Shown one piece after another: positions 38,346 to 58,681 of a stretch of DNA of 64,000 nucleotides (position 1 is the first letter of the stretch; each line of letters begins with the position of its first letter). The notes beneath the pieces are model-generated. The model searched no databases and was not told where the DNA came from. It saw only the letters and a program-made list of their open reading frames with translations. The translations under genes and the position numbers were made by a program. The stretch is taken from the NCBI RefSeq assembly GCF_055900595.2, contig NZ_CM148325.1. One strand, written 5' to 3'.

Positions 38346-38705
38346 ATGAGAATGACCAGCCGTAAAAAAGAGATACTCAGTTATTTTGAGCCGGATAACC
38401 TAGAATGGGTGACAGGTGAGATTGGTGCGCCGCCGTTCGATGTGTCGGGCGTGGCCTACCTGCTTCATGGCATGGTGTCGTTCGATAAGCGCCACCAGCT
38501 CGAATCAACCCGGCGCACACTGGAAAGCATGGTTGCTGGTGGACTGCTTGAGCGGGTGACAGTGTATGAATCGCGTCAGGTACGGCGCGGCGGTGAGACT
38601 AACGCAACGGTCGTGCGCTACGGTTTACCCGGTCACTGCGCTGTTATGCGCGATACTGGCGGCGCTGATAACGCAATATCAGGCGAATACATGCGGGTCA
38701 GTTAA
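38346..38705 (+). CDS. Hypothetical protein (119 aa)
   Basis: ORF only; no recognisable motif. Confidence 0.35.
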   Translation: MRMTSRKKEILSYFEPDNLEWVTGEIGAPPFDVSGVAYLLHGMVSFDKRHQLESTRRTLESMVAGGLLERVTVYESRQVRRGGETNATVVRYGLPGHCAVMRDTGGADNAISGEYMRVS

Positions 38706-39240
38706 GAGCCTGCAATCTGTCGTTAATGTTGTTCAGGTCGTAAACCCGGCGTTCAATATCCAGCATCAGGAAATCGTGGATCTCGGCCTGTTCAGGATTA
38801 TCAGACTCTCTGGCCTGTAAGAGCAATTCATTGTAACCATGCAAACCACCCGAATTTTCCGCCGGGGTAGTGCCCTTCCCGCGCAAACAGCTAACAGGCT
38901 GGATACTGGTATCATGTGTTTGCTTCTCCAGCACAACAAGGCAATCCCACCAGTCGCCAAAGTCATACGTGTAAACCAGCTTGTCACCCTCATTCTGGAG
39001 CGCCGCCCATAGTGGCGTGATTGCCGCGTTACCCATGCTTTCATCCTCACCCCATACGCGATACTCGCTACCTGGATCACCTTTACGCCCTTTCTCGAAC
39101 ATATACAGGTGTTCGTCATTCCAGCCAAAAGCTAACTGGATCACGGCATGAAGTTTACTAAAGGGGATTTGCTCTGGAACCAGCACACGCCGCCATATTG
39201 GTGGTTTGCTGTCTCGGATGGTTATCTTTATCTGGTACAT
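38698..39240 (-). CDS. pRiA4b ORF-3-like family protein
   Basis: N-terminus MYQIKITIRDSKPPIWRRVLVPEQIPFSKLHAVIQLAFGWNDEHLYMF is the recalled hallmark of this family. Confidence 0.6.
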   Translation of the reverse strand: MYQIKITIRDSKPPIWRRVLVPEQIPFSKLHAVIQLAFGWNDEHLYMFEKGRKGDPGSEYRVWGEDESMGNAAITPLWAALQNEGDKLVYTYDFGDWWDCLVVLEKQTHDTSIQPVSCLRGKGTTPAENSGGLHGYNELLLQARESDNPEQAEIHDFLMLDIERRVYDLNNINDRLQALN

Positions 39241-39283
39241 GCGTCGTGAACCAATAGTGTACGTTTAGGTGGGTATTTTTCTG

Positions 39284-39718
39284 CTACTGACCAGGATAGA
39301 GCTGATGTGCCGGGTCAAGCCAGACAATATGGAATACATTACCGATGAAAAATCCATGTATGCGACCATATTCATTGCGCGATATGGCAAATTGATAAGG
39401 TGTATAACTCTGAAACTGTTCATTCAAATGCTGAAATCCCTTAGGTTCAGATGTAGTTTGCCAATCAATCGGATGTGACTTCAACGAACCACCGCGATCG
39501 GTGGTGAACTCTCGTTCAGTCATAGTGGAAAGGTCTTTGAGGCGGTCTAACACCTTGCAAAAATAAACAGGATTCTGAGCGCTGAAAGTAAATTTCTCAT
39601 GCGCCGCATCGATATACCGAAAAGAAAAGTTGATGGTCGTTATGCCTGAACCTGTTCCCCCAGGCACTATTTTTGTTTGCGAGGGTGCAATCTTCGACGC
39701 CCTGATTCTTTTCGCCAT
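39284..39718 (-). CDS. Hypothetical protein (144 aa) coupled to the Panacea-domain gene; candidate toxin/effector partner
   Basis: ATG 2 nt after the upstream stop with no SD of its own (translational coupling); no recognisable motif. Confidence 0.5.
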   Translation of the reverse strand: MAKRIRASKIAPSQTKIVPGGTGSGITTINFSFRYIDAAHEKFTFSAQNPVYFCKVLDRLKDLSTMTEREFTTDRGGSLKSHPIDWQTTSEPKGFQHLNEQFQSYTPYQFAISRNEYGRIHGFFIGNVFHIVWLDPAHQLYPGQ

Positions 39719-39720
39719 AT

Positions 39721-40176
39721 TTAGGAAGCCATCGAACGATAAAACTCAGCCGTTACACTTTTATCAATAACATTCTTGCACGGCGCATCTGATGGAACCC
39801 CTTCACGGGCCTCCAGCCACGGCTTTTCTTGGTGCGTCATCTGCTCCAGCTCATAAGCTGTATAACCGCCAAATACCTCATAGATTTCCTTTAGATGCTT
39901 TGACACATTCGCAGGTAACTCAGGGCAGGCAATCTCTTCGTCTATTGAGCGCCATTTGTAATCTGCAAATCTGGTATACAAATCTCTGGCTACAGGGCCA
40001 TGTACCCATGCTTCAAACTTGTCAGCAACCAGTTCTTCGCCATCATTCAGCGCCATGAACCAAGCATCAGCATAGAACACCATTTTTTGCAGTTTCAGCG
40101 GCGTCATAACATCCCCATGCTCTTGAGCAAAGCAAAGCAGGTAATCCGCTACGCTGTTAAGGGTTGTAACTGCCAT
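39721..40176 (-). CDS. Panacea-domain (DUF4065, SocA/GepA-like) protein; putative antitoxin
   Basis: AGGAG SD before ATG at 40176 (MAVTTLNSVADYLL...); LKLQKMVFYADAWFMALNDGEELV...FEAWVHGPV is characteristic of the domain. Longer ORF 39721-40407 is probably upstream read-through. Confidence 0.6.
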   Translation of the reverse strand: MAVTTLNSVADYLLCFAQEHGDVMTPLKLQKMVFYADAWFMALNDGEELVADKFEAWVHGPVARDLYTRFADYKWRSIDEEIACPELPANVSKHLKEIYEVFGGYTAYELEQMTHQEKPWLEAREGVPSDAPCKNVIDKSVTAEFYRSMAS

Positions 40177-40497
40177 TATCCAATCTCCTGCCGTATGTTT
40201 TCGTCTATAACTGTCCACTACCGTTAATAATCGCATATAACCACGGGTATTGCCCATCGTAAAATGCCATTTAAAGATTCTGCGTGATGGCTCACCATCC
40301 ACCGCGCAAGATACCCGGTGCGTTTGGCTGATAATCCGCAATTTGGTTGAAACCGTCCTGGAAACCTCAAGTTTGGAAACCAGCGACTTGCATCGTAGCT
40401 TTGCCATTCGGCGGTCATAGTTACTGCTATATCCCTTTATTGGCGAGACCTGCGAGAGGTTTTGTTGTTCGAATATATAAAGGTGAATAAAGGTAAT

Positions 40498-40683
40498 CTA
40501 CCTGCGCGGCGCAGGCTTCTTCCACTGGTAGGCGGGTGATCGCATCATTTCGCGAAATTTGTCACGCCGGGCTATATTGGCATTAACTGAGCGTTCTATC
40601 TCCCGTTGATCTGCCGGGGTTAGCTGGTGGCCTTCGTGCTCCAGTTTGGCGGTGGTCAATAAAGCTATTTCGCGTGGTGTCAT
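40498..40683 (-). CDS. Hypothetical small protein (61 aa)
   Basis: ORF only; charged, helical. Confidence 0.25.
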   Translation of the reverse strand: MTPREIALLTTAKLEHEGHQLTPADQREIERSVNANIARRDKFREMMRSPAYQWKKPAPRR

Positions 40684-40910
40684 ACGTCATACCCTCTGGA
40701 AGGATGAAACACGCCCGGATTAAATTTCATTTTTCGCGGGTATAAAAAAACGATGGGGCGGGCAGTCCCGGATAGTCAGGGCTGTAGAGATTTGACTACC
40801 CCCTCCCCACTGGATTCAGGTTACTGCTATTCCGTTAAGCGCTGCTTACGGGGATAGCTGCGTTGTGATTTTGACCATTCAGGTCGCCGCTATTTCCTCA
40901 CCGATTGGGT

Positions 40911-40942
40911 GCTACGCGCGCGCGTACTTGTCCCGAAATACC
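40911..40942. repeat. Copy 1 of a GC-palindrome motif (GCTACGCGCGCGCGTACTTGTCCCGAAAT)
   Basis: One of three same-orientation copies (with 42303 and 42589); core TACGCGCGCGTA is a perfect palindrome. Confidence 0.5.
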
Positions 40943-40980
40943 AGAAACCGCCAGCCAGAGGATGATTTCCCTCTGGTGGT

Positions 40981-41262
40981 CTACCTTTGCCTCTTGCCGC
41001 CATTTAACCGGAAGGCGTTACCGTTCGGTTGCGCTATCCCCATGCGGTGTTGCGTTTCGGTAACAGCTTTATGCAGGTCGCCAAATTCCTCAACCTTCAC
41101 GGGCGGGCGCTTCACGTTCTCCAGACACGTTTCACGGCGGCGCTTTATCCATTCCCGATCATCGTCCTCGCTGCATAACAGCATGACTTCCATCCATCGT
41201 GCGGCAGCTCTCCGGTATAGCCCTTTTGACACCAGCTCTTCAGCTTTCCTGTCCCTTATCAT
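40981..41262 (-). CDS. PerC-family transcriptional activator-like protein
   Basis: 93 aa; MIRDRKAEELVSKGLYRRAAARWMEVMLL matches the conserved PerC/Pch N-terminal signature (recalled). Confidence 0.55.
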   Translation of the reverse strand: MIRDRKAEELVSKGLYRRAAARWMEVMLLCSEDDDREWIKRRRETCLENVKRPPVKVEEFGDLHKAVTETQHRMGIAQPNGNAFRLNGGKRQR

Positions 41263-41295
41263 TTCTGCCTCTCAGATTATATAGATAAGCAAAAA

Positions 41296-41420
41296 GGTGT
41301 TGGTTCAGTTGGTTCAGTTGGTTCAATTTGTAAAGATCGTTGTTTTTATTATGTTTTTTCTAAAATATTGAACCAACATCAACTCATTTTGAACCAACAC
41401 AGCCCAGCTCTGAACCAACA
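41296..41420. repeat. Iteron array I: 3 direct + 3 inverted GTTGGTTCA repeats around an AT-rich spacer (origin-like)
   Basis: GGTGTTGGTTCAGTTGGTTCAGTTGGTTCAATTTGTAAAG ... TTGAACCAAC, TTGAACCAACAC, TGAACCAACA; the first 40 nt are the exact reverse complement of 49541-49580. Confidence 0.7.
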
Positions 41421-41521
41421 ACACAGCGATAGCTTTGTGATTGGCCCGTTATTTTCTGGCTGATATTTGAGCGTATAACAGTGTTATACAGTGATATACT
41501 GTATGGATATTACTCACTGAT

Positions 41522-41977
41522 ATGGTCTTTGCAATGAGCAAATCTAATCTGGTCGCGTTCCGCATCCCATCTGAATTGCAGGATGAGTTTAATCGGTCTG
41601 TTCTCGCTTCTGGAGGGGATAAAACCTCCTGGCTTGTTGATGCGATTCGCATGAAGCTGGGACAGCCGGAAAAGTCTATTGATTCACGAATGTTTGGGCT
41701 GGTGGAGCGCATGGAAAAAGCTGCTGCGTCGCTTATTGCCGGAAAGCCGAACATCCCACCAAAGCCATATAACGAAACGGCAGTTATAAAGATCATTGCC
41801 GATACCATCCGACAGGGATTTGATAATGGGCGTGTGATAGCTGAACGGATCAATGAAGCAGGCTATCAAACAAAAGCTGGTAAAGCGTGGGATAAAGATA
41901 TTTACAGCGCGTGGAAGCGTCAGGGAAGCAATGCTGAAAAGTTAAAAGCGGTGATTGATTGTAAGGTCAGCGTATAA
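41522..41977 (+). CDS. Hypothetical protein (151 aa)
   Basis: ORF just downstream of iteron array I; no recognisable motif. Confidence 0.4.
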   Translation: MVFAMSKSNLVAFRIPSELQDEFNRSVLASGGDKTSWLVDAIRMKLGQPEKSIDSRMFGLVERMEKAAASLIAGKPNIPPKPYNETAVIKIIADTIRQGFDNGRVIAERINEAGYQTKAGKAWDKDIYSAWKRQGSNAEKLKAVIDCKVSV

Positions 41978-42056
41978 ACATGAGTGCCCATTGGAAAGCT
42001 GCTTGGGCCAATACCTTTATACACCAGCAGGTGGTGACGATAGGTGAGGATCAGGA

Positions 42057-42278
42057 ATGAAAGGCAGAACGCCACACATTGAACATCAAGCCAACCACTT
42101 CTCGGATGTTCGCAATGAGATGATTGCCATTCGCGGTGATATGCACGGCTTGGAGCGTCGAATTATTGATAAGATTGATGAAAATAGAGATAAGGCCAGT
42201 GAAAATCAAAAGTGGATCATCGGCCTGTTGATTTTATCAATTCTTATCCCGCTACTTATCGCATTGGTCACAAAATGA
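42057..42278 (+). CDS. Small membrane-anchored protein (73 aa), XhlA/holin-like architecture
   Basis: Charged N-terminal helical segment then C-terminal TM helix (WIIGLLILSILIPLLIALV). Confidence 0.4.
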   Translation: MKGRTPHIEHQANHFSDVRNEMIAIRGDMHGLERRIIDKIDENRDKASENQKWIIGLLILSILIPLLIALVTK

Positions 42279-42302
42279 ATATCCAATGTGTATGCTGTCG
42301 AT

Positions 42303-42332
42303 GCTACGCGCGCGTACTTGTCGCAAAATATC
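42303..42332. repeat. Copy 2 of the GC-palindrome motif (GCTACGCGCGCGTACTTGTCGCAAAAT)
   Basis: Same orientation as copy 1; one CG unit shorter. Confidence 0.5.
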
Positions 42333-42588
42333 AGGCAAAGGCCAGATTCAGAACGTCGTGATAACCACCAGCACAACATGAGATGTCATGTAACGCGATT
42401 TATCACGTCAGATACATGTGATTGGTGTACCCGCATAAAACATTGTCATAGCGCGTCCTGTGCGCATATACGCCGATAATCAACACATCACCACCACTCT
42501 GTCTCATGTAGAGAACACTTTTATGGTATCCCCCGCCATCGTGTGCGTACTGGTCGGACGCAGTTGCAAAAAATTTTGCAACTGATAC

Positions 42589-42619
42589 CCCTCGCGCGCG
42601 TACTTGTCTCGAAATTGGT
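42589..42619. repeat. Copy 3 of the GC-palindrome motif (CTCGCGCGCGTACTTGTCTCGAAAT), preceded by a TTGCAAAAAATTTTGCAA palindrome
   Basis: Third same-orientation copy; separate 18-bp inverted repeat at 42564-42581. Confidence 0.5.
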
Positions 42620-42822
42620 GTTTTGCTGTGGCAGTGATATCAGAAAAATCTTCCTGTTTCACATAAAGCGGATATGCGCGTACTGTAACGGCCCCATCAA
42701 CTGGGAGCGGATTTGAGCCCCGAATGTGTAGGCAATGTCACTTAACGTTTGTCGCATACCTTCCAGAAAAAGCGATTCATGAATAATAGGGGCATGAATG
42801 CCCGGCGTACCGGGCTTATTAG

Positions 42823-43521
42823 TTAATTTGGTGCTTTAGGGTCAACATTAAAAGTTATATCACCTTCTGTATTTTTCCCGGCATAGCTAGCGGCTATTCT
42901 CGCCAACCCTTTGTAATCAGCAATTCCATCAGACTGTTGCGAGACGACTGAGCTACCAACTTTCCATAACATATTAATCTGCCGATTATTGAGATAAGCC
43001 TTGGCATCAAACGACTGGAGTATCACCCCTGCGCCGTAGAACGTGTCCGTCACAGTTGTGTTATACGCGCCAGTAATTCCATAAGTAGGCGTATAAACTG
43101 TTGTTGCCGTTCCAGTGGTATTAGCTGTACCGTAGCCACCACCATAACTATTGAACGTGGTGTTCGAGTTTCCGTACGTTGTTGCTGAGCTCACACCAGT
43201 TTGCCCGTATATTGGGATGGTTACATTACGAGTATTTGAAATGGCCCCGCTTCTCAAAAAGTTCAAGAGAATTACCTGGTCAGCCAATTTTTCATCTTTA
43301 ACTTGTGTATATCCTTGGCTTGATAAACTGGCGGCTACTACCGTAGCTATTTGAGTGTATTCAATCTGTTTGGTGTTCCAAAGTTCTTGGCTTGCGGGGA
43401 TGATCAAGAACTTCTTACCGACAGATTGCCCGGAAGATAAAGCATTGACCGTTACTAACGGTTTTTGTACGCATCCAGCCAATAATGACAGGGATAATAT
43501 TAAAAGAAGATTTTTAATCAT
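42823..43521 (-). CDS. Lipoprotein, Gly/Thr/Asn/Tyr-rich
   Basis: Signal peptide with lipobox (MIKNLLLILSLSLLAGC); low-complexity central region. Confidence 0.6.
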   Translation of the reverse strand: MIKNLLLILSLSLLAGCVQKPLVTVNALSSGQSVGKKFLIIPASQELWNTKQIEYTQIATVVAASLSSQGYTQVKDEKLADQVILLNFLRSGAISNTRNVTIPIYGQTGVSSATTYGNSNTTFNSYGGGYGTANTTGTATTVYTPTYGITGAYNTTVTDTFYGAGVILQSFDAKAYLNNRQINMLWKVGSSVVSQQSDGIADYKGLARIAASYAGKNTEGDITFNVDPKAPN

Positions 43522-43671
43522 GATAATCTCACCTAAGAATTGCGTGGTTATAAATTATCATCACTGTAAGCGAATGTAAGCCACAGACTCGTAATGTGAT
43601 ATGGAATTTTGATAGTTGGCTCAATATCAGTATGCCGTCCTTGGCTATTATGGTTTTGTTAGTTAGAGCGT

Positions 43672-46398
43672 CTATTCCCATTCGCTAACATCTTTCATGC
43701 CACTGAGGGTAGCTACAATCCCGGCCCTTGTCAGTTTCACGAATTCTTCAGCCCCAACGGCATCACGAATTGCTTTCATGGCAATTTTATTGGCCGAAAA
43801 TCGTTTCTCTGCTGCGGCGATCGCTGCTGGTGATGCCCCTGCGCGCACTGCTTTTGTAGCTTCCTGAACGGCTTTCTCTATCGCATATCGACCACTTCTT
43901 GTCGCCCCAATCTTAGCCACAGCATTTCTTAGCGCGCCACCAGCAACCAAACCACTAATCGAACCAATTACACCACCGCCAAAGCCTCCAGCGATCGCAC
44001 CTGACTGTTGAACACCGTTCATAATCACGCCGACGATCTTTGGAAGGCCTGAATCGAGCGTTTTGAGAGCCTCAGTTGTTCTTCCCGTGCGCTCTACGTA
44101 TCGCTGCGGTCTGGTACTGGCTTTAGCGAGTACACCGAACTCTTTCATCATTCTACCGAGATCTGGCGCATGACGACTGATGGCGTTTACATTCTGCTGG
44201 GTCATGAGCTTGGCAAAATACTGGATACCTGACTCTTCACCGATTCCTCCCTTCTCTCCCTGCGCCACAGCATGCTGAAGAATAGATGCTATTGCAGGTT
44301 GGCGTTCTGCTTCCGGCAGCGCGGAGATAAGACGGTGAAAAGCTCCCGTTCCAGTGTTTGCGGATGCCTTAAGCGTATCGGCACCTTTTCTTACCATAGC
44401 GTCTGATGCGAGATCTCGACCAAAAACAGATTCGGCATTTTGTTTGGCGATAATGTAACTTTTAGAGAGATCGTTAGCTTTCTGCCATTCTGTGAGGAAG
44501 TTTCCTTTTTCAGCCATGATGCGCATGTCATCAGTGATAGCTCTGCGCATTTCTCCGGCAATCCGGGCGGCATTGGCCTTACCTGCCCGGGTGTTTGCTT
44601 GTTCAGCATCAGCAAACTTAGCACGCCATGCCTTCATCCCGTCGAAGGTTATGCCGCCACCTTGGTTGTTGGCAGCCTGAAACTGTTTCATCTCCGGGCT
44701 GAGTGGAACATTGGCTGCTTTTTCTGCTTGGACGACAGCCATTCCATTACTCATTTTCATCCTTTCGCGTGGCATCGTGCTTCGCAGTTCTGCCCATGCC
44801 ATATTCTCTGCTGTTTTCATATCACTGAGGCTCGCGATGATGCGCTCTTTAATTGCTGCGCTTTTTTCTGATGCGCTTCCAGACTCAGCACCGAAATCAG
44901 ACAACTGCTTATTCAACTTTGAGGATATTTCATTGAAGGCCGTAAGGTGAGCATCCTGAACATTCCCAGGAGTTGATGCCAGAACACCTTCTGCTTGGGC
45001 AATTCCACGACTACCTGAGCGCATTCCAGGCGTCAGGGTGTTGATATTAATACCAGTGATTTTCGCCGCCTTAGCGACATCATCTCTGACGTTTGATGCC
45101 TGCGATGCGATATGCTCTCGGCCTACGGCAGAACGCGCTGCTTTCGATACATCATTGGCGGTTTCCAGAGTATTTGCTGCCCCTAACACATGGCCTGATT
45201 GATTTGTATTACTCCGCAATACATCTCGCATTACGTCACTGGCTGTCTGTCCGCTCTTTATTAAAGCGCGTGCTCCTAGCGATCCTGCTAGGCCAATACC
45301 TGTCTCTTTTGCTAGGTCTTCTGGGCTGATCTGCCCGTTCTTTTGGGCGTTCACCAATGTACCTGGCAGGTTTTCTGCCAACATACTAGCCACCTTTGTG
45401 GCCGCACGTTCAGCACGTGGAGCGTTGGCAACTGAAGAAGCTGCGGTAGCTGCCTTTCCTGCACCTAATCCTGTAATAAGGTAAGGTGCTAGCTGCTCAC
45501 CAGCCTGCGCGTATGGATCTGTAGGTTGGTCTACTGGGCGAAAGACAGGTGATATGGGCGTGTATGTGCCATCACCCACACCAAGCTTCTGAGCTGCCCA
45601 TGCTCCGGCTGATTGCGCCGCATTGACTACCCCCACGCCTGCGTCCATTACATCAAACGGTATATTAGCAATCCCTCTGGCCATCTGCTCTGGCGCAGCT
45701 TTCAGTCCTGGCGAAAGATATTCCATCTCAGGATTAAGGTTAGACTTGGCTACTTGCTGCTGCGGTTCCCCGGCATTTTCATCGGCGAGAAACTGAGCTC
45801 TTTTCTGCTCCCATGAACTGGCTGTTGGTAGTCCTGCTTCTATGTTCTTAAATTGCTGACGTTTTGCTTCCCATGCAGAAATATCTCCCACCTGAGAGAT
45901 TTCTTTATCAAGCTCTGAGTAGTCAGGCTGCTGAAGATTGCGATGTTGACTGGTTTGTGCAAACTGCAAGATTTCACTGTCATCAGGGATTATTCCGGCA
46001 TCTGCAAATTTACTTACGTAATTAGCCGTTTCATCTGGCAGTGTAGATTTACCGTTTCTGACGGCATTAATACGAGCATAGCCAGAATTATACCCAGCCA
46101 ATGCCATACCTATATCACCAAATCGCTTCATTCCTTTATTGAGATGGTTTGCTGCGATATCCATTTGCTTTTCAAATGGCAGTGAGCGCGGATCTGTTCC
46201 ACGATAACCAGCATCACTCATTACTGAGGGCATCAGTTGAGCAAATCCTCTAGCTCCTTTCGGTGACTCGGCACTTCCGTTACCACTAGATTCATTGCCA
46301 ACTAATGTTTCCATCGTCCCTGATGGGAAACCATATTTTTCATCGAGATGACGGGAATAGGCTTTCTGTTTTTCTGTCAGTTGTGCCATCATTGCCAT
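43672..46398 (-). CDS. Large protein with N-terminal lytic transglycosylase (SLT) domain; podovirus gp16-like internal virion/ejection protein
   Basis: 908 aa; SLT motifs (GARGFAQLMPSV ... ALAGYNSGYARI) then long helical region and C-terminal hydrophobic segment. Confidence 0.65.
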   Translation of the reverse strand: MAMMAQLTEKQKAYSRHLDEKYGFPSGTMETLVGNESSGNGSAESPKGARGFAQLMPSVMSDAGYRGTDPRSLPFEKQMDIAANHLNKGMKRFGDIGMALAGYNSGYARINAVRNGKSTLPDETANYVSKFADAGIIPDDSEILQFAQTSQHRNLQQPDYSELDKEISQVGDISAWEAKRQQFKNIEAGLPTASSWEQKRAQFLADENAGEPQQQVAKSNLNPEMEYLSPGLKAAPEQMARGIANIPFDVMDAGVGVVNAAQSAGAWAAQKLGVGDGTYTPISPVFRPVDQPTDPYAQAGEQLAPYLITGLGAGKAATAASSVANAPRAERAATKVASMLAENLPGTLVNAQKNGQISPEDLAKETGIGLAGSLGARALIKSGQTASDVMRDVLRSNTNQSGHVLGAANTLETANDVSKAARSAVGREHIASQASNVRDDVAKAAKITGININTLTPGMRSGSRGIAQAEGVLASTPGNVQDAHLTAFNEISSKLNKQLSDFGAESGSASEKSAAIKERIIASLSDMKTAENMAWAELRSTMPRERMKMSNGMAVVQAEKAANVPLSPEMKQFQAANNQGGGITFDGMKAWRAKFADAEQANTRAGKANAARIAGEMRRAITDDMRIMAEKGNFLTEWQKANDLSKSYIIAKQNAESVFGRDLASDAMVRKGADTLKASANTGTGAFHRLISALPEAERQPAIASILQHAVAQGEKGGIGEESGIQYFAKLMTQQNVNAISRHAPDLGRMMKEFGVLAKASTRPQRYVERTGRTTEALKTLDSGLPKIVGVIMNGVQQSGAIAGGFGGGVIGSISGLVAGGALRNAVAKIGATRSGRYAIEKAVQEATKAVRAGASPAAIAAAEKRFSANKIAMKAIRDAVGAEEFVKLTRAGIVATLSGMKDVSEWE

Positions 46399-47708
46399 CC
46401 CTTAAGTTTTGCCTGATAGTAACTTTCCGGCAGATAGCCATGTGCGGTCACATAATCCTTAACCAGTGAAGGATCCTGCAACAGCATTTTGGTATCAGTT
46501 TCTTCGTCCTTAGATTTGGTTACAGGAATACCGAGCCCGGCAATCTGTCGTTTCTGCATTCGAATAATTACGTCCTGCGCTTTATTCAACTCTCGCAAAA
46601 ATGCCTCATTGCTGGTTGCTGACTTAATGCCATTTTGAGATTGCATAAGGGCAGCCCTTTCCCCTTCGGTTGGGTTAGAGCCAAAAGTCCCTTTGAGGCT
46701 AGGCAGAATAACCTTTAGGTTGTATTCATCAGCTTTGGCGCGTAGGCTTCGTGTGTCTTCTGCTACATCAGGAAGGAATCCAAACCCCAGCGTCAGGGGG
46801 TTATAGTTCTGCGAGCGGGTAACGGCCGAAGGATGTTTCCCTACAATTCCCGCCAGTTCATGACCCACTTCAAGCGCAGAGTTCAAGGAGTCGATGTTAC
46901 CTGCAACAGTATTAATTTTATCGTTCATCTTCTCCACTTTCGCCTGCTGTATCTTGCTCAGTTCAGCATTGAGCTTGTCTCTCTCGATGTCATTTTGAGC
47001 ACGTCCAAGTCGTGCTTTCAGAACCATTTCTCTCGTGCGTAGTTGGTTATCGGATAGGACTTTGAACTGCTCCATATCGAGACGTCGATTACCCTGTTCC
47101 GCATTAACCTGAGCATTATATGCGGATGTATCTGCGTTCTGCTGTGCAATGCTCTGCCCTTGCTGCTTCTCTTGAACACTAAAGTAACTATTTGGATCAG
47201 CATGGAGGTGGATGAGGTCAGTGATTCTGTTGAATTCCTGTGGGTCATTCTGCCAAGACTGATAAACCTCTTCAGCAGGAAGACCAAATCGCTGTAATAC
47301 TGGATTTGCCTGCTGAATGGCCTTCTGCATGGTCAGTGGATCTCCAGTTTGTGACGCAAGACGCAGATTCATGGCAGCGTCAGCGGTCTGTCGATTTTGC
47401 TCAGCATCAATGAATCCCATCTGTTTTTGAGAATCAGCCATAAACTGGGGATACTGGGCCATTAACTTCTGCACGCCAACACGATCATTATTAGCTACCG
47501 CACTACCCAACCGTGCCTGATATTCTTTTAACTGCTGGGAAATTTGCGCCTGCTGATTAATCTCAGCAACGCCTCTTAGCCCCTGTAGCGCCATTAAACC
47601 TACGTTTGGCTGCTGCTGATACTGCACAGGCTGAGGAACGGAAGAACGAGGAGCATTATCATTTTGCGGTGCCATGCTAGGCAGCCCGCCAAGTTGCCAT
47701 GTCGCCAT
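46389..47708 (-). CDS. Gln-rich coiled-coil protein (439 aa); gp15-like by size and position
   Basis: Overlaps neighbours by 1-10 bp; no enzymatic motif. Confidence 0.5.
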   Translation of the reverse strand: MATWQLGGLPSMAPQNDNAPRSSVPQPVQYQQQPNVGLMALQGLRGVAEINQQAQISQQLKEYQARLGSAVANNDRVGVQKLMAQYPQFMADSQKQMGFIDAEQNRQTADAAMNLRLASQTGDPLTMQKAIQQANPVLQRFGLPAEEVYQSWQNDPQEFNRITDLIHLHADPNSYFSVQEKQQGQSIAQQNADTSAYNAQVNAEQGNRRLDMEQFKVLSDNQLRTREMVLKARLGRAQNDIERDKLNAELSKIQQAKVEKMNDKINTVAGNIDSLNSALEVGHELAGIVGKHPSAVTRSQNYNPLTLGFGFLPDVAEDTRSLRAKADEYNLKVILPSLKGTFGSNPTEGERAALMQSQNGIKSATSNEAFLRELNKAQDVIIRMQKRQIAGLGIPVTKSKDEETDTKMLLQDPSLVKDYVTAHGYLPESYYQAKLKGWQ

Positions 47709-48385
47709 TAGAATCCAAGCCCCCCAACAAGACCAATAAGCCCACCACCAATAGCGCCGGCCGCAGTTCCTATTCCAGGAACAACGGAACCAAGTTGCGC
47801 ACCCGCTAAAGCGCCTGATGCTGCCCCACCAATACCACGCGCAAGACTGGATGGCTGCTGCGCCTGACCTGCACGAATAGCGCCAAGCCCCTGCAAGAGT
47901 TGTCCGGTATTATTGGCGTAGTTTTGCCCTGCCGTTGCCTGCCCTGATGCCGCATTCATCCCGACATTTAGCAGGTTTCCATAATTTTGCATTTGCCCAC
48001 TGAGCCAATTGTTATAAAGCATGGGCGCAATGGAAGATAACTGGTTACTGGTAGCTGTTGAGCCAAGCCCCCCGGTAGCTTCTGCTGAGACAAGGTTCTG
48101 ATAACGGGCCTGATCTGCCTGTGTTTTATATAAACCAGAACCAAAGAAATCATTCGCGGCTTTATTCTGCCCTTCCAGAGTCATCAGTCCTTGTAGTTGT
48201 TGTAAAGCAGGCAATCCGACTTCTGCATACGGCTTGAGATTATTCATCACCGTATTCCACTGCTCGCGCTGCAAATCAATTGCCTGCTGCTGGGCCTTCG
48301 CCTGAGCTTTAGAGGCACCACCATCACCGCCTTTTTCGTATACGGCACGATTGAGATGTTTATGAGCTATGTGGGTAATTAACAT
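47708..48385 (-). CDS. Protein with C-terminal glycine-zipper membrane segment (225 aa); gp14-like
   Basis: C-terminus GIGGAASGALAGAQLGSVVPGIGTAAGAIGGGLIGLVGGLGF. Confidence 0.5.
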   Translation of the reverse strand: MLITHIAHKHLNRAVYEKGGDGGASKAQAKAQQQAIDLQREQWNTVMNNLKPYAEVGLPALQQLQGLMTLEGQNKAANDFFGSGLYKTQADQARYQNLVSAEATGGLGSTATSNQLSSIAPMLYNNWLSGQMQNYGNLLNVGMNAASGQATAGQNYANNTGQLLQGLGAIRAGQAQQPSSLARGIGGAASGALAGAQLGSVVPGIGTAAGAIGGGLIGLVGGLGF

Positions 48386-48840
48386 TCGCTGAATTCCTTA
48401 TATTGTTGCCGAGTTAACTGATAAAGCGTTACGCCGACGGGTTTACCACATCTGATATAAGCATCATCAAGGTGACCAACACGGGTAGCGCCAAGCAAAC
48501 GGATAATTGCCCGTCCGTATTTGGTGGTGTCAGGAACCATGGTAATGCTGTTAAGGAATGGTGAGTTTTCGAGAAGCCATTTGCAGAATAATCGATGCCC
48601 TTGCAGTGCATATTCACCACGGAATCCGGGGTCGTACACCGCATGGCATTCAACAACGCTATGCCAGAAGTTACGCACTTCATGAACGCCAGCCAGCACT
48701 AATCCTTCGTAGATGCCGAGATATACCGCATCAGGCTTGATGTAGTACGTGTGCCCCGGCTCAACAATATTTTCGGTATTGCCTGGCTCGTTAAGAAAGG
48801 CCTGTAATCGCACAGGGTTATCAATAAATTTTAGTTCCAT
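48379..48840 (-). CDS. Hypothetical protein (153 aa); first gene of the four-gene module (gp13-like position)
   Basis: ORF with coupled start; no recognisable motif. Confidence 0.5.
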   Translation of the reverse strand: MELKFIDNPVRLQAFLNEPGNTENIVEPGHTYYIKPDAVYLGIYEGLVLAGVHEVRNFWHSVVECHAVYDPGFRGEYALQGHRLFCKWLLENSPFLNSITMVPDTTKYGRAIIRLLGATRVGHLDDAYIRCGKPVGVTLYQLTRQQYKEFSEC

Positions 48841-49602: not shown

Positions 49603-52362
49603 TCATTCTTCAGATGAGTTATAATCTCCTGGCTGGTAATTGAGTACATAAACGTTTATTTGTCGTCCCTGAATACGTGGTGATTTTCTTTGGTATCCAC
49701 GACCGCTGTTTGGTGGGGTTAGCATCCCGGCTTTTTTCAACACTTCAGCAAACTGTTTTGCGTTGAAACCACATGCGATCTCCTTTTCAAATGTGGCCGG
49801 GAATGTGTAGAAAATCATTGGGCTTTCGTCATGTTCTCCACGCTGACGGTATCCGGCTAAATCTTTGATGGGCAAATCTGCCGGGCTGTATGGAAATGGT
49901 GCAAAACGGCTAAGCCCATAGGCATTAAGAAATGCCTCCGTTTGTTCAATAATCTGCTGATGTTCTTTGTTACCTGTGCCGAACTCGCGCAACCATGCGT
50001 TATAGCTGTGCTGTATCGCATCACGGCATGTCTGAGCATCCCAGCCTGTTACAACCTCGCCTAACAGCAATGCGGCCTCCAGAATGGCAAATCGCGCGGC
50101 TACACGGTGAACCTGCTCACCATAATCGGATGGGATCAGGCTTCTCCATCTGCTTTCGCAATCACGAACGGTTTTAATAGCCTGTTGCTGGTGGTCTGCC
50201 AGCCATTTAATCCACTCACGCCCGGACGCGCCGTGGTGATGCTGGTAAGCGTCTTTCAGTGCGTCTGCGTGCTGTTTTCCGTTCTGGTAATCGTGAAAGC
50301 GTACTGCTTTACTCAACGGAATATTCAGCAGTCGCACCAGTTGCCCGGCTTTGGTTTTTCGCCCGGAAGTAGCGATAAATGTTTCTAAATCCATTTCTCC
50401 GGTGCTGATTGCCACTGTACGCCAACGTTTTAGATCCCGGTTTCCACCATCTTTAGCGCCTTGCAGTTTCCCTACACCGTTAAATAACGCATAGGCAGAC
50501 TGTGAAACGCTGACAGGATCAGCGCCCTGACCAACTTCATCAAGCGGCATTAGTCCGTCATTGTGGGCGGCGGCCTCATTTGCCAGCCCCAGCGCGGTTC
50601 CGTACCACGTCAGCCGCAGTAAATCAGGGTTGCCGTATAAGCTGCTCGCCACGTTTGCCGTGGTGGTCTTACCTGCGCTCGACTGCTCATAGAAATGAAT
50701 GCCGAACCCGTCAGCGCCCACCAGCCCAATCAATGGCGCTGCCAGTGCTGCGCCGATCCCGGTCATCATTGAATAGTTACCAAAGGCCAGACGCGCCACG
50801 TTATCACGCCAGCTTTTCGCGCTCCCTGAGACGGTATATCCGGCTGCGGCTGAGCTTCTCCCGCTGAACAGCACAGGATTTTCAGGTGTTCCGATGATTT
50901 CCCCATCAGGCATGATGTACGCTCCGCATTGCCAGCCAGTGGCATGAGCAACACGCCACAATTCACGAGAGCCACTGCGTTGTAGCCAGTCTGCCAGTAT
51001 TGCTCTGAGGCTGCTTTTGGTCGTGACATTTACCCCACCAGCTTTAAGTGTGCGCCATCCTTCACGTTCACCAATATCAGCCAGTGGAATGGCAGCGGTT
51101 GTCGGCGTTTCAGAACCAAACGACAGCCAGCGAAGAATGAGATACTGGTCTTTATCGTCTCTGCCAGTACCGATAACGCTTAACGGAGAACATAACCAGC
51201 TTTCGTTATTGATGATTTCTCCACTCTGGCTGTCAGCTCTCGGAGATACCCAATAAATACCATCCTCGCGGCTTTCTATTCTTGGTTTCAGTGGGTCGGT
51301 ATCCATAACCTTAAAATCGCTTCCCTCAATGGTCTGTGGCTCCTGTTTCACGCCATTACCCTGTGGTTGGTACATTGACTTATTGAACGCTTCTGTGGCG
51401 CATTTAATGCCGTGTTTTTGGTGGTAATCATTCCAGTCTGCTTTGTGATCTGTCGGGGGTAATGCCACCCATCCAGAAACAGATAAAGCTGCTTTTTCTG
51501 CTGCTATTCTCCCCGTGTTTTGTCTTCCTTCGCTGTGGTCGTTATCCGCAGCAATGATGATTTGTGCTGAAGGATATTTATCCCGCAGTACCTGGGCGAC
51601 ATATAACAGGTTCCCGGCATCAATCGCCGCCACTGTCAGCGCCTCTGGACGAATTAAATGGGCAGATAATGCCGTTGCCAGCCCTTCTGCGATTAAGATG
51701 CTCTGTGTTGTTTCTGGTGCGTTTATGGCGTGATATGCCCCCCGCTTTGCTGAACCTGTCAGGAGTCTTTTTTCACCATGTGAGGTAATAGTCTGTGCTG
51801 CTGTGACTGCGCCGGATTTATCCACCAGCGCCAGCAACAGAGATCCATCGGGCAACACGGGGAATGTAAAATCACCTACCCCTTTCGCAACCAGATAATC
51901 AGATTTGCCGTTTACAGCCTTTCTGCGCATGTCATCAAACTGACGGGAAAACGTATCCCGTCTTTGTTGTTCGTCCTTCTCTGCCCTTTTCAGGCGCTCC
52001 TGTTCGCGTCGCTGGCGCTCGGTTTCCAGTTGTTCCCGTTTCTGGCTGGTGGCTTCTGGTGTTTCCGTTGTCCGGTAATCAATACCCAGAACATCAGCGG
52101 CAAGAAGCGCCGCCTCTGTTGTGTCGCAGTTATTTACGCGTTTAATTAAATCCAGCCCATCACCAGCGCCGCACTGATTACAGATGAAGCTACCGCGCCC
52201 GTTGTCATCGAACCGGAATCGATCTTTGCCCCCACATGCAGGGCAGGGAGCATGACGGCGCGGAGAGTCAGGGACATTTATGTTCAGGCAGCCCAGCACA
52301 TGAGGCCAGTTGTTTTCAGACGCACTGATAACCTGACGGATAAGATCAATGTTTCGCATCAC
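49603..52362 (-). CDS. Primase-helicase (P4 alpha-like: Zn-binding primase + TOPRIM + P-loop NTPase)
   Basis: 919 aa; N-terminal zinc ribbon (CPACGGKDRFRFDD...CNQCGAGDGLDLI), TOPRIM-like acidic region (IIIAADNDHSEGRQNTG), Walker A-like SSAGKTTT. Confidence 0.85.
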   Translation of the reverse strand: MMRNIDLIRQVISASENNWPHVLGCLNINVPDSPRRHAPCPACGGKDRFRFDDNGRGSFICNQCGAGDGLDLIKRVNNCDTTEAALLAADVLGIDYRTTETPEATSQKREQLETERQRREQERLKRAEKDEQQRRDTFSRQFDDMRRKAVNGKSDYLVAKGVGDFTFPVLPDGSLLLALVDKSGAVTAAQTITSHGEKRLLTGSAKRGAYHAINAPETTQSILIAEGLATALSAHLIRPEALTVAAIDAGNLLYVAQVLRDKYPSAQIIIAADNDHSEGRQNTGRIAAEKAALSVSGWVALPPTDHKADWNDYHQKHGIKCATEAFNKSMYQPQGNGVKQEPQTIEGSDFKVMDTDPLKPRIESREDGIYWVSPRADSQSGEIINNESWLCSPLSVIGTGRDDKDQYLILRWLSFGSETPTTAAIPLADIGEREGWRTLKAGGVNVTTKSSLRAILADWLQRSGSRELWRVAHATGWQCGAYIMPDGEIIGTPENPVLFSGRSSAAAGYTVSGSAKSWRDNVARLAFGNYSMMTGIGAALAAPLIGLVGADGFGIHFYEQSSAGKTTTANVASSLYGNPDLLRLTWYGTALGLANEAAAHNDGLMPLDEVGQGADPVSVSQSAYALFNGVGKLQGAKDGGNRDLKRWRTVAISTGEMDLETFIATSGRKTKAGQLVRLLNIPLSKAVRFHDYQNGKQHADALKDAYQHHHGASGREWIKWLADHQQQAIKTVRDCESRWRSLIPSDYGEQVHRVAARFAILEAALLLGEVVTGWDAQTCRDAIQHSYNAWLREFGTGNKEHQQIIEQTEAFLNAYGLSRFAPFPYSPADLPIKDLAGYRQRGEHDESPMIFYTFPATFEKEIACGFNAKQFAEVLKKAGMLTPPNSGRGYQRKSPRIQGRQINVYVLNYQPGDYNSSEE

Positions 52363-57466: not shown

Positions 57467-58681
57467 TCATGCGTGTTTTTCAAACACCATATGCACCACA
57501 TTTCCGCCATGCTCGAGAGAATCCATATAGTCGGCATACCATTGAAGCATCTCCCGCCTTCCATCCAGATATTGCGCATGGTTGTATGTGCCACGAATTG
57601 AGTTCTTATCAACGTGAGCGAGCTGCGTTTCTATCCACGCGGTGTTATAGCCCTGCTCATGCAAAATCGTACTCATAGTGTGCCGGAACCCATGACCAGT
57701 TACACGTCCAGCGTAGCCAATGCGCTTAAACACTTGGTTTATGCTGGCCTCGCTCATTGTTTTCCTTGGATCATTGCGCCCGGGAAACATAAGAGGGTAA
57801 TTGCCTGTTATTTCTCTAATCTTCCCAATAAGCGAAAGAGCCTGCTCAGACAATGGCACAATATGAGGCCGCCGCATTTTCATACGTGAAGCGGGTATCT
57901 CCCAGATAGCCTTGTTGAAATCAATTTCATCCCATAATGCGCCACGTAGTTCGCCAGTCCGCAAGCCGGTGATAATCAGTAGACGAGCCGCCATAACAAC
58001 CAATGCGCTTCCTGAGTAACTGGACAATGCCTTGAAAAAATCAGGTAATTCTTTGGCTGTAAGGAAAGGGTAATGATTAGATTCATGGCCTTGCATCGCG
58101 CTAGTAAGGTCTGGTGCAGGGTTATACTCTGCGCGACCAGTGACTATTGCATAGCGGAAAACTTCCCCGCACCGTTGCCTCACTTTTTTGGCTTTTTCTG
58201 TAGCACCGCGCCCCTCGATGCGACGCAGCACATTCAGAAGTTCAAGTGGTTTGATTTCGGCGATGGGTTTTTTGCCAATGTAAGGGAACACATCTTTGTT
58301 GAAGGCTTCGAGGATGTCTGAAGCATAACCAGCAGACCATTTTTTTAATTTGCTGCTGTGCCACTCAAGGGCAATATCTTTGAAGGTGTTGTTTAACTGC
58401 GTTTCCCGGGCAATCTTTTCCTCTCGTTTCGCTTCCATCGGATCGATACCACCAGCGATACCTCTTTTCGCATCTTCACGTTTTGCCCGAGCATCGGCTA
58501 GAGTAACCTCAGGATAAACACCTAGTGCCAATAGCTTCTCTTTACCAGCTACACGATATTTAAGTCGCCAGTATTTACCTCCATTAGGTTTTACCAAGAG
58601 ATACAAACCGCCACCATCGGCCAGCTTGTAAGCCTTCTCTTTTGGCTTGGCTGTGTCTATTTGACGGGCATTGAGTTTCAC
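57467..58681 (-). CDS. int: P4-type tyrosine integrase
   Basis: 404 aa; N-terminal MKLNARQIDTAKPKEKAYKLADGGGLYLLVKPNGGKYWRLKYR; catalytic region HGFRHT...(Y); directly downstream of thrW, same orientation. Confidence 0.9.
   Translation of the reverse strand: MKLNARQIDTAKPKEKAYKLADGGGLYLLVKPNGGKYWRLKYRVAGKEKLLALGVYPEVTLADARAKREDAKRGIAGGIDPMEAKREEKIARETQLNNTFKDIALEWHSSKLKKWSAGYASDILEAFNKDVFPYIGKKPIAEIKPLELLNVLRRIEGRGATEKAKKVRQRCGEVFRYAIVTGRAEYNPAPDLTSAMQGHESNHYPFLTAKELPDFFKALSSYSGSALVVMAARLLIITGLRTGELRGALWDEIDFNKAIWEIPASRMKMRRPHIVPLSEQALSLIGKIREITGNYPLMFPGRNDPRKTMSEASINQVFKRIGYAGRVTGHGFRHTMSTILHEQGYNTAWIETQLAHVDKNSIRGTYNHAQYLDGRREMLQWYADYMDSLEHGGNVVHMVFEKHA

Follow-up and report, generated by a model that had tools for sequence, protein, structure and literature searches.

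A conserved hairpin-bearing lipoprotein encoded beside the P22-type ejection genes of an Escherichia coli island: a possible phage entry-exclusion factor

The DNA analysed here, referred to as the window, is a stretch of 64,000 nucleotides of an Escherichia coli chromosome (RefSeq assembly GCF_055900595.2, contig NZ_CM148325.1). Two genes between positions 42057 and 43521 are described in RefSeq as "hypothetical protein". One encodes a lipoprotein of 232 amino acids (WP_000594596.1; 42823..43521, minus strand) and lies directly downstream of a set of P22-type ejection genes on the same strand; the other, on its far side, encodes a membrane protein of 73 amino acids (WP_001378274.1; 42057..42278, plus strand). 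Both belong to an island of about 20 kb, which is integrated at the tRNA-Thr gene thrW, adjoining proA. An initial annotation had read the products as a small protein with a C-terminal transmembrane segment and a lipoprotein, and had considered superinfection exclusion or lysis as their functions. Both descriptions of the proteins are correct; the lipoprotein is considered here as a putative moron product that could interfere with the entry of other phages.

The lipoprotein begins with MIKNLLLILSLSLLAG-C17-VQ, a signal peptide that ends in the lipobox L-A-G-C(17); this agrees with the lipoprotein pattern L-[AS]-[GA]-C without Asp at +2. The lipobox cysteine is unchanged in 128 of 128 family representatives and is preceded by G, S or A. 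No transmembrane segment follows the signal peptide. Under the E. coli Lol sorting rule, lipoproteins without Asp at +2 go to the outer membrane; as position +2 is Val, the protein is predicted to be exported and sorted there. Comparison with two homologues gives a ratio of nonsynonymous to synonymous substitution rates (dN/dS) of 0.039, with synonymous sites nearly saturated, and the ratio for the 73-residue gene is 0.21-0.24. Both genes are under purifying selection and are therefore real genes rather than chance open reading frames (ORFs).

The Gly/Thr/Asn-rich lipoprotein had been labelled low-complexity in the initial annotation, which is misleading. Residues 95-165 (28% Thr, 17% Gly, 11% Tyr and 10% Asn) are the best-conserved part of the family, with G106, Q107, T108, G109, T115, G117, G127, T141, P145, Y147, G148 and G151 invariant or nearly so. 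The motifs P-x-[YWF]-G-Q-T-G-V-S-S and [YF]-x-P-T-Y-G-I-T-G are near-invariant in 29 homologues; both are equally conserved across 131 representatives of clusters formed at 50% identity. In the AlphaFold (AF2) model, which has a predicted local distance difference test score (pLDDT) of 86, an α/β core carries a very long, projecting two-stranded β-hairpin with strands at residues 82-124 and 132-172. The hairpin proper spans some 65 residues (about 95-160), and the length of its tip varies in the family. The conservation and the structural model together rule out a disordered linker.

Across the family the hairpin is polar on both faces, and its hydrophobic positions (102, 104, 110, 119 and 149) are isolated. 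A canonical transmembrane β-hairpin of the CsgG kind is unsupported, as the alternating hydrophobic face is absent. Because of this polarity, the model is best read as a solvent-exposed collar or barrel, not as a lipid-embedded one. A Foldseek search found a weak likeness between the hairpin and the pore-state stems of β-pore-forming toxins (E 1e-3 to 1e-2).

By fold, the core belongs to the LptE/PelC/TraT/DUF4136-like class. The tabulated figures for the structural matches are 10.7 for PelC, 9.6 for TraT, 9.1 for the DUF4136 protein BT2437 (4f54), 8.8 for CsgG, 7.8 for a flagellar LPHT-ring protein (8z5n) and approximately 7.5 for LptE. Close homologues (38-90% identity) are found only in Enterobacterales, while weaker ones (23-34%) carry the Pfam domain DUF4136. 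A profile search of 1.84 billion cluster representatives retrieved 3,840 clusters at E<=1e-3, 648 of them at E<=1e-30. A pattern scan of species-representative genomes found the family in Verrucomicrobia, Planctomycetes, Nitrospirae, Desulfobulbia, Chlamydiae, Leptospira and Proteobacteria. The lipoprotein is a stand-alone member of a large family of uncharacterised function. An NCBIfam search gave nothing useful, and a sequence profile search of the PDB gave only chance matches to β-glucanases through the PTYGITG motif. Literature searches on the protein accession, the hairpin motif and the function of DUF4136 found nothing relevant; DUF4136 is mentioned in a paper on the UG5 reverse transcriptase as a mere domain label.

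Among 5,426 complete E. coli genomes, 75 (1.4%) carry the lipoprotein gene, always in the same island family. This rarity rules out a conserved core envelope protein, the identity that would have told against the initial annotation. The gene for a gp16 protein with an SLT lytic transglycosylase domain is also present in 75 of these genomes, and it is adjacent to the lipoprotein gene at every locus inspected.

The position of the gene is the strongest evidence in the analysis. In several settings it follows, on the same strand and at a distance of 0-170 bp, the last gene for an ejection or internal-virion protein. Relatives in islands of other Enterobacteriaceae (89% identity) occupy the same place after the ejection genes. 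A complete P22-like prophage of Serratia surfactantfaciens encodes a homologue with 63% identity in the order gp4-gp10-gp26-gp14-gp7-gp20-gp16(SLT)-lipoprotein-Arc/Mnt-tailspike; this homologue therefore lies in the interval that separates genes 16 and 9 in P22. The window island has no tailspike gene, and the lipoprotein gene still follows gp16 directly. In T7-type prophages, namely one of Serratia nevei and four from IMG/VR, homologues with 34-43% identity follow the last of two or three large internal virion proteins after a gap of 0-63 bp, and the tailspike gene comes next. The internal proteins match phrog_1044/992 (with a transglycosylase), phrog_342/16310, phrog_1145 and phrog_684. The P22-like and T7-type placements show that the same slot is used in two unrelated ejectosome types. 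The view that both genes of the window are accessory cargo carried by a phage-derived element is borne out by the low genome count and by the match of the region to the P22 ant moron, which holds sieA (PMC10461980; PMC2629481).

In Enterobacterales, each context examined is a prophage or an island. More distant relatives are found next to the primase gene in two P4-like satellites (L010, L022), in a Vibrio island with integrase, reverse transcriptase, KilA-N and resolvase genes (L008) and in a myovirus tail cluster (L013); some adjoin AbiU2, Tn3 or integrase genes. The lipoprotein loci share no conserved partner gene. Between E. coli and Serratia, the lipoprotein is 63% identical, compared with 55% for gp7, 45% for gp16, 25% for gp20 and 24% for gp14.

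Island variants that lack the lipoprotein have a protein of 131 amino acids with several transmembrane segments in its slot. In variants at the dinD site (L027-L029, 6684-7079), this protein shows several hydrophobic segments and is encoded beside a 705-residue gp16 without SLT. It matches no PHROG family and may be a SieA-like analogue.

The lipoprotein gene has a GC content of 42.5%, compared with 49.5% for the gp16 gene and 37% for the spacer of 150 bp (43522..43671, minus strand) that separates the gp16 stop codon from the lipoprotein start. Within this AT-rich spacer, a block of 61 nt (43522-43582, minus strand) contains CTTACA-N6-CTTACA and the Shine-Dalgarno sequence AGGTGAG; it is kept in the window, L003 and L012 although the flanking DNA is only 75-78% identical. 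A promoter scan found a weak σ70-like candidate at 43674-43647 (minus strand, 9/12 match). Just past the lipoprotein stop codon, overlapping GC-rich hairpins with T-runs on both strands (42790..42815, with terminator-like sites at 42800-42815 on the plus strand and 42803-42790 on the minus strand) resemble a bidirectional terminator; this putative assignment is a consensus match only. The low GC content, the terminator-like hairpin and the conserved upstream block are moron-like features; the promoter-like site is weak.

Three small ORFs (32, 52 and 34 amino acids), which overlap one another by 4 nt, lie downstream of the lipoprotein gene on the minus strand (42403-42757). They could represent a decayed gene or coupled micro-ORFs. 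The 544-bp region that holds them, between the lipoprotein gene and the 73-residue gene, is 94-99.8% conserved in sister islands.

The 73-residue protein has a charged, helical N-terminal part of about 50 residues. Its sole hydrophobic segment, IIGLLILSILIPLLIALVT, comprises residues 54-72 (mean Kyte-Doolittle value 2.95) and is followed by one residue. Homologues are found in E. coli only, and the best match is the uncharacterised phrog_6324 (E 3e-11). In P22-like E. coli prophages, a form of 77 amino acids belongs to the operon mnt(Arc family)-orf123-orf77-orf75, convergent with gene 16 and next to arc-ant-tailspike. In P22 itself, mnt, orf59a and sieA form the mnt side of the ant moron (PMC10461980), which is the side of the 77-residue gene.

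ORF151 (41522..41977, plus strand; 151 amino acids, or 147 from the RefSeq start at 41534) ends 80 bp upstream of the 73-residue gene. Its N-terminus reads as a β-α-α pattern like the ribbon-helix-helix of Arc/Mnt and is followed by a helical C-terminal domain; it has no Pfam match, and one homologue bears the source name 'Arc-like DNA binding domain protein'. In the AF2 model, helices 17-29 and 34-47 are of low confidence (N-terminal pLDDT 52-60 as a monomer) while the C-terminal domain reaches 85-91; low values are expected where an obligate dimer is modelled as a monomer. ORF151 is probably the regulator of a small operon with the 73-residue gene, and overlapping palindromes 17 bp upstream of it (TATAACAGTGTTATA and ACAGTGATATACTGT; 41473..41505) look like putative operators. 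The ORF151 family (~143 amino acids) is widespread at the ends of related islands and also occurs without the 73-residue gene. The likeliest role of the 73-residue protein is that of a small, independent membrane effector in exclusion or abortive infection: the protein would be tail-anchored in the inner membrane and transcribed with an Arc/Mnt-like regulator, in a slot that elsewhere holds an Abi gene.

The initial annotation had placed both genes between copies of a GC-rich palindrome and had treated them as one unit. The motif, CGCGCGCGTACTTGTC, occurs at 40917, 42307 and 42593, with a degenerate copy at 42540 (4 matches against 0.45 expected). The 73-residue gene does lie between the copies at 40917 and 42307; the lipoprotein gene lies outside all copies, and those at 42307 and 42593 fall between the two genes. 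An extended form, CGCGCGCGTACTTGTC-N-C-R-AAAT, is present three times, always on the plus strand (40917-40932, 42307-42322 and 42593-42608).

The two genes are independent modules. Homology with the sister islands L030 and L031 restarts exactly at 42298 and runs on through the lipoprotein gene. To the left of this point the content varies: ORF151 and the 73-residue gene in the window, ORF147 and an Abi-family gene in AR_0085, and a gene for a 61-residue helix-turn-helix (HTH) protein in NC101. A third island variant combines ORF151 with a 66-residue form of the small protein, and replaces gp16-SLT and the lipoprotein by the 705-residue gp16 and the 131-residue protein. In the E. coli genomes the pair of ORF151 and the 73-residue gene is found 165 times (at >=80% coverage, that is at least 80%), the lipoprotein 75 times and the whole region 35 times. 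The breakpoint, these counts and the separate occurrence of the genes in related loci rule out a functional pair. Since the motif copy at 42307 coincides with the recurrent breakpoint (42298..42322, plus strand), it suggests a cargo-exchange junction.

The island extends from ~38300 to 58700. Its gene order is integrase (57467..58681), HTH regulator, AntA/AntB, Ash, TOPRIM/DUF927 primase (49603..52362), P22-type module (43672..48840, minus strand) and lipoprotein. PHROG and Pfam matches identify gp14-like (DUF2824; 48379-48840), gp7-like (47708-48385) and gp20-like (46389-47708) genes in the module, followed by a gp16-like gene (43672-46398) whose product of 908 amino acids has an N-terminal lytic transglycosylase domain (Pfam SLT); all are on the minus strand. 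The PHROG families are phrog_651, 598, 917/2534 and 770, and the Pfam domains at homologous loci are DUF2824, P22_gp7, Inj_translocase and Phage_P22_gp16. No capsid, terminase or tail genes are found in the island. With a full gp14-gp7-gp20-gp16 set and no structural genes, it looks like a phage satellite; a satellite with its own ejection proteins might evade SieA-type exclusion, whose targets are gp16 and gp20. Literature searches on satellites with ejection proteins found nothing relevant. The same island also uses a second integration site, beside dinD/yicG-ligB, and an identical copy is present in the avian pathogenic E. coli (APEC) strain E19025 (RefSeq). Related forms of the island are present in other Enterobacteriaceae.

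On its other flank, the lipoprotein gene is followed by the 73-residue gene, ORF151 and the genes for PerC, a Panacea/SocA-domain protein and a pRiA4b-ORF3 protein. The PerC-side cargo at 38698-40407 comprises the last two, the Panacea/SocA domain being a toxin-antitoxin antitoxin domain; the cargo of AR_0085 includes an Abi-family protein (L030, 12143-13105). The island end with this cargo resembles a hotspot for defence genes. Between PerC and ORF151 (41299-41420), GTTGGTTCA is repeated three times in direct orientation and then three times inverted, as TGAACCAAC. These repeats may be origin iterons or regulator binding sites; a blastn match of 41292-41401 reveals a similar repeat between the primase and ejection-module genes of L030 and L031. 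An Rfam scan of 40400-43800 gave only a chance miRNA match over the iteron region, and a megablast search of 41400-43700 against phage genomes gave zero matches.

A tentative explanation, with a probability of roughly 0.4, is that the lipoprotein is a ring-forming outer-membrane protein, carried by a moron, which hinders a post-adsorption step of incoming podoviruses. Its gene would be a moron at the 3' end of the ejection or internal-virion operon, both in temperate podoviruses and in the window island. The protein would be expressed in the lysogen and would act on the envelope of the carrier cell. As its relatives TraT (a decamer), PelC (a dodecamer) and CsgG (a nonamer) form rings, the lipoprotein may well oligomerise in the same way; the hairpins of such a homo-oligomer would join into a β-sheet collar or barrel. 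The block would then occur at the outer membrane or in the periplasm, where the ring would engage a conserved feature of the host or of the ejectosome and interfere with assembly of the ejection-protein conduit or with the action of its transglycosylase. By analogy, exclusion is plausible, and in function the lipoprotein would then resemble SieA, TraT, Llp or Cor. Its stronger conservation relative to the ejection proteins suggests that its target is a conserved component of the host envelope, or the transglycosylase step, and not a fast-evolving phage surface. A more specific version is on balance unlikely: this would be a new phage or satellite entry-exclusion complex related to TraT, in which the hairpin barrel or collar of the ring jams the site where the P22 proteins gp7/20/16, or the T7-type internal proteins with their transglycosylase, build the ejection channel.

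A number of observations weigh against exclusion by the lipoprotein. No annotated homologue ties either it or the 73-residue protein to exclusion. The proteins of 73, 232 and 151 amino acids are unmatched in PADLOC-DB v2 at E up to 0.1; the lipoprotein is also unmatched in PHROGs, and it gave nothing significant in a viral fold search of BFVD. The PHROG families matched by the 73-residue protein, phrog_6324 and, weakly, the holin family phrog_689, are not exclusion families. A tblastn search with the lipoprotein against 50,697 phage genomes and 72,556 plasmids returned zero homologues, so that studied phages offer no function to carry over. Some members in distant phyla are flanked by housekeeping genes such as SecA/AddB (L036), and the family is therefore not intrinsically phage-related. 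The likeness to TraT is below threshold at the sequence level: the Pfam score is 12.9 bits (E 0.091, cut-off 31), and the hhalign match (86% probability) covers only 86 N-terminal columns, signal peptide included. The predicted promoter is weak. In some T7-type prophages the lipoprotein gene directly adjoins or overlaps the virion gene before it (gap 0-12 bp), which suggests late co-transcription over expression in the lysogen. Finally, an identity of 63%, compared with 24-55% for the ejection proteins, is unlike that of an arms-race determinant aimed at them.

Late co-transcription would suit a role in the element's own lytic cycle. Membrane-bound inhibitors of peptidoglycan-degrading enzymes have precedents in MliC/PliC, which act on lysozymes, and in T4 Sp, which acts on gp5; a lipoprotein made late with the ejection proteins could shield the peptidoglycan of the producer from the gp16 SLT domain, keep progeny virions from ejecting into debris in the manner of T5 Llp, or assist in breaching the outer membrane at lysis. 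The gene lies on the same strand directly downstream of the ejection operon, its genome count equals that of SLT-gp16, and each internal-virion module that precedes it includes a transglycosylase. Where gp16 has no SLT domain, in island variants and P22-like prophages, the lipoprotein is missing too, and the long Thr/Ser-rich hairpin bears a weak likeness to toxin stems. However, gp16 is a cytoplasmic protein that is packaged and lacks a signal peptide, so that it would not be expected to encounter a lipoprotein of the periplasm in the producer; the polarity of the hairpin is too high for a transmembrane barrel exposed to lipid. Lysis genes are absent from the island and the carrier prophages have complete lysis cassettes elsewhere, family members in P4-like satellites or at non-phage loci are not accompanied by an SLT gene, and the co-occurrence in E. 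coli may only mirror a recently spread block of at least 99% identity. Taken together, a lytic-cycle role is fairly improbable. Lysis itself, which the initial annotation had also suggested, is unlikely for either gene. The lipoprotein is not spanin-like: it is folded, has 232 residues and has no i-spanin, endolysin or holin neighbour, and its size and context rule out an o-spanin. For the 73-residue protein, a holin- or XhlA-like leftover of a phage lysis module would fit its small size, its single transmembrane segment and a marginal match to the holin family phrog_689 (E 4e-3; 4e-5 for the 77-residue prophage homologue). This origin is nonetheless quite improbable, as the protein is never encoded beside an endolysin or spanin, P22-like prophages place its homologue between mnt and gene 16, its transmembrane segment lies at the extreme C-terminus with no charged tail, phrog_6324 matches better, and the same slot in sister islands holds an Abi gene or nothing.

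The lipoprotein might instead benefit the host. As a fitness or virulence moron, it would alter the cell surface so as to confer serum (complement) resistance, adhesion or envelope robustness in the manner of TraT or lambda Bor/Iss. Its fold is TraT-like, and TraT is also a complement-resistance protein (Pfam name; PMC9243006). The island includes a PerC-family virulence-type regulator and is present in APEC, extraintestinal pathogenic E. coli (ExPEC) and NC101-type strains, lying beside the vat toxin gene in NC101; the high sequence conservation would suit a host-directed function. Such a role is rather unlikely, since relatives are known from environmental bacteria and from satellites in metagenomes, to which serum resistance would mean nothing, carriers include deer, sediment and livestock commensal isolates, and the recurrent adjacency to ejection proteins is left without explanation. 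The same adjacency is difficult for a hitch-hiking DUF4136/LptE-like envelope lipoprotein (for example a glycan- or LPS-binding scaffold) that has no role between phages. The size and breadth of the family, the members among housekeeping genes and the absence of a conserved partner are what this would predict. However, all Enterobacterales contexts examined are prophages or islands, the same slot recurs in two unrelated ejectosome types and strong purifying selection is kept inside mobile elements; a simple hitch-hiker therefore has a low probability.

If the lipoprotein excludes phages, it would provide an entry block at the level of the outer membrane for podoviruses, whose DNA delivery is poorly understood, and a way to approach the mechanism of TraT-like proteins, itself still undefined. 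It would be a factor in phage therapy and in prophage competition in APEC, ExPEC and Shiga toxin-producing E. coli (STEC) strains. In the more specific, TraT-related version, surface exclusion by plasmids and superinfection exclusion by phages would rest on a common, ancient protein architecture, and the family of 3,840 clusters would acquire a function. If it excludes nothing, it is an ordinary accessory lipoprotein. Only in the minority of P22-like phages with sieA, 22 of 66 (PMC10461980), does the slot between the ejection proteins and the tailspike have a known function. The lipoprotein is a different, strongly conserved occupant of this slot, found with two ejectosome types and in satellites, and the nearest functionally understood structural relative of its family is an exclusion protein.

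That relative is TraT (PF05818; PDB 9e2v, 9fs5 and 9fsm), the surface-exclusion and complement-resistance lipoprotein of IncF plasmids. The lipoprotein shares with it an LptE-like core and a long β-hairpin. The hairpin is inserted between two core strands at what we take, judging from the TraT sequence, to be the insertion point of the TraT helices. Unlike TraT, the lipoprotein has no Gly/Ala-rich transmembrane helix pair; the insertion in its AF2 model consists of the two strands 82-124 and 132-172, with no helix. TraT comprises an LptE-like core, two transmembrane helices and a long β-hairpin, and the hairpins of its decamer form a continuous β-sheet ring (bioRxiv 10.1101/2025.05.27.656304; also PMC11733297). 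TraT is plasmid-borne, whereas the lipoprotein is found on none of the plasmids searched; TraT works with a type IV secretion system, while the neighbours of the lipoprotein are phage ejection proteins. Against DUF4136 (PF13590; BT2437, PDB 4f54) the lipoprotein scores 14.2 bits, below the cut-off of 32.8, and the 173-residue domain of BT2437 lacks the hairpin motifs P-x-[YWF]-GQTGVSS and [YF]-x-PTYGITG. It differs from other members of the LptE/PelC/CsgG class in having no Pel, curli or Lpt operon context.

Among phage systems, T5 Llp and φ80/N15 Cor are outer-membrane lipoproteins that inactivate FhuA (reviewed in PMC11436027). Like these, the lipoprotein would be a phage-encoded outer-membrane lipoprotein that guards the carrier cell or the progeny at the outer-membrane step; Llp and Cor have only ~60-80 amino acids, belong to siphoviruses that use FhuA and are unrelated to it in sequence and fold. 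A parallel by position is SieA of P22. sieA and its homologues lie in the interval between genes 16 and 9, and SieA acts on gp16 and gp20 (PMC10461980); this interval is the known ant moron (PMC2629481). The Serratia homologue occupies the same slot after the ejection genes, beside mnt/arc and the tailspike gene, and both are envelope proteins of temperate podoviruses. SieA is a multi-spanning inner-membrane protein that blocks DNA injection, whereas the lipoprotein is predicted to reach the outer membrane, is encoded on the late-operon strand and has no sequence similarity to SieA; on the mnt side of the moron, sieA is nearer in position to the 73-residue gene. What is distinctive here is the invariant hairpin together with an unusually consistent position after the ejection genes, in a TraT/DUF4136/LptE-like lipoprotein of a probable prophage moron.

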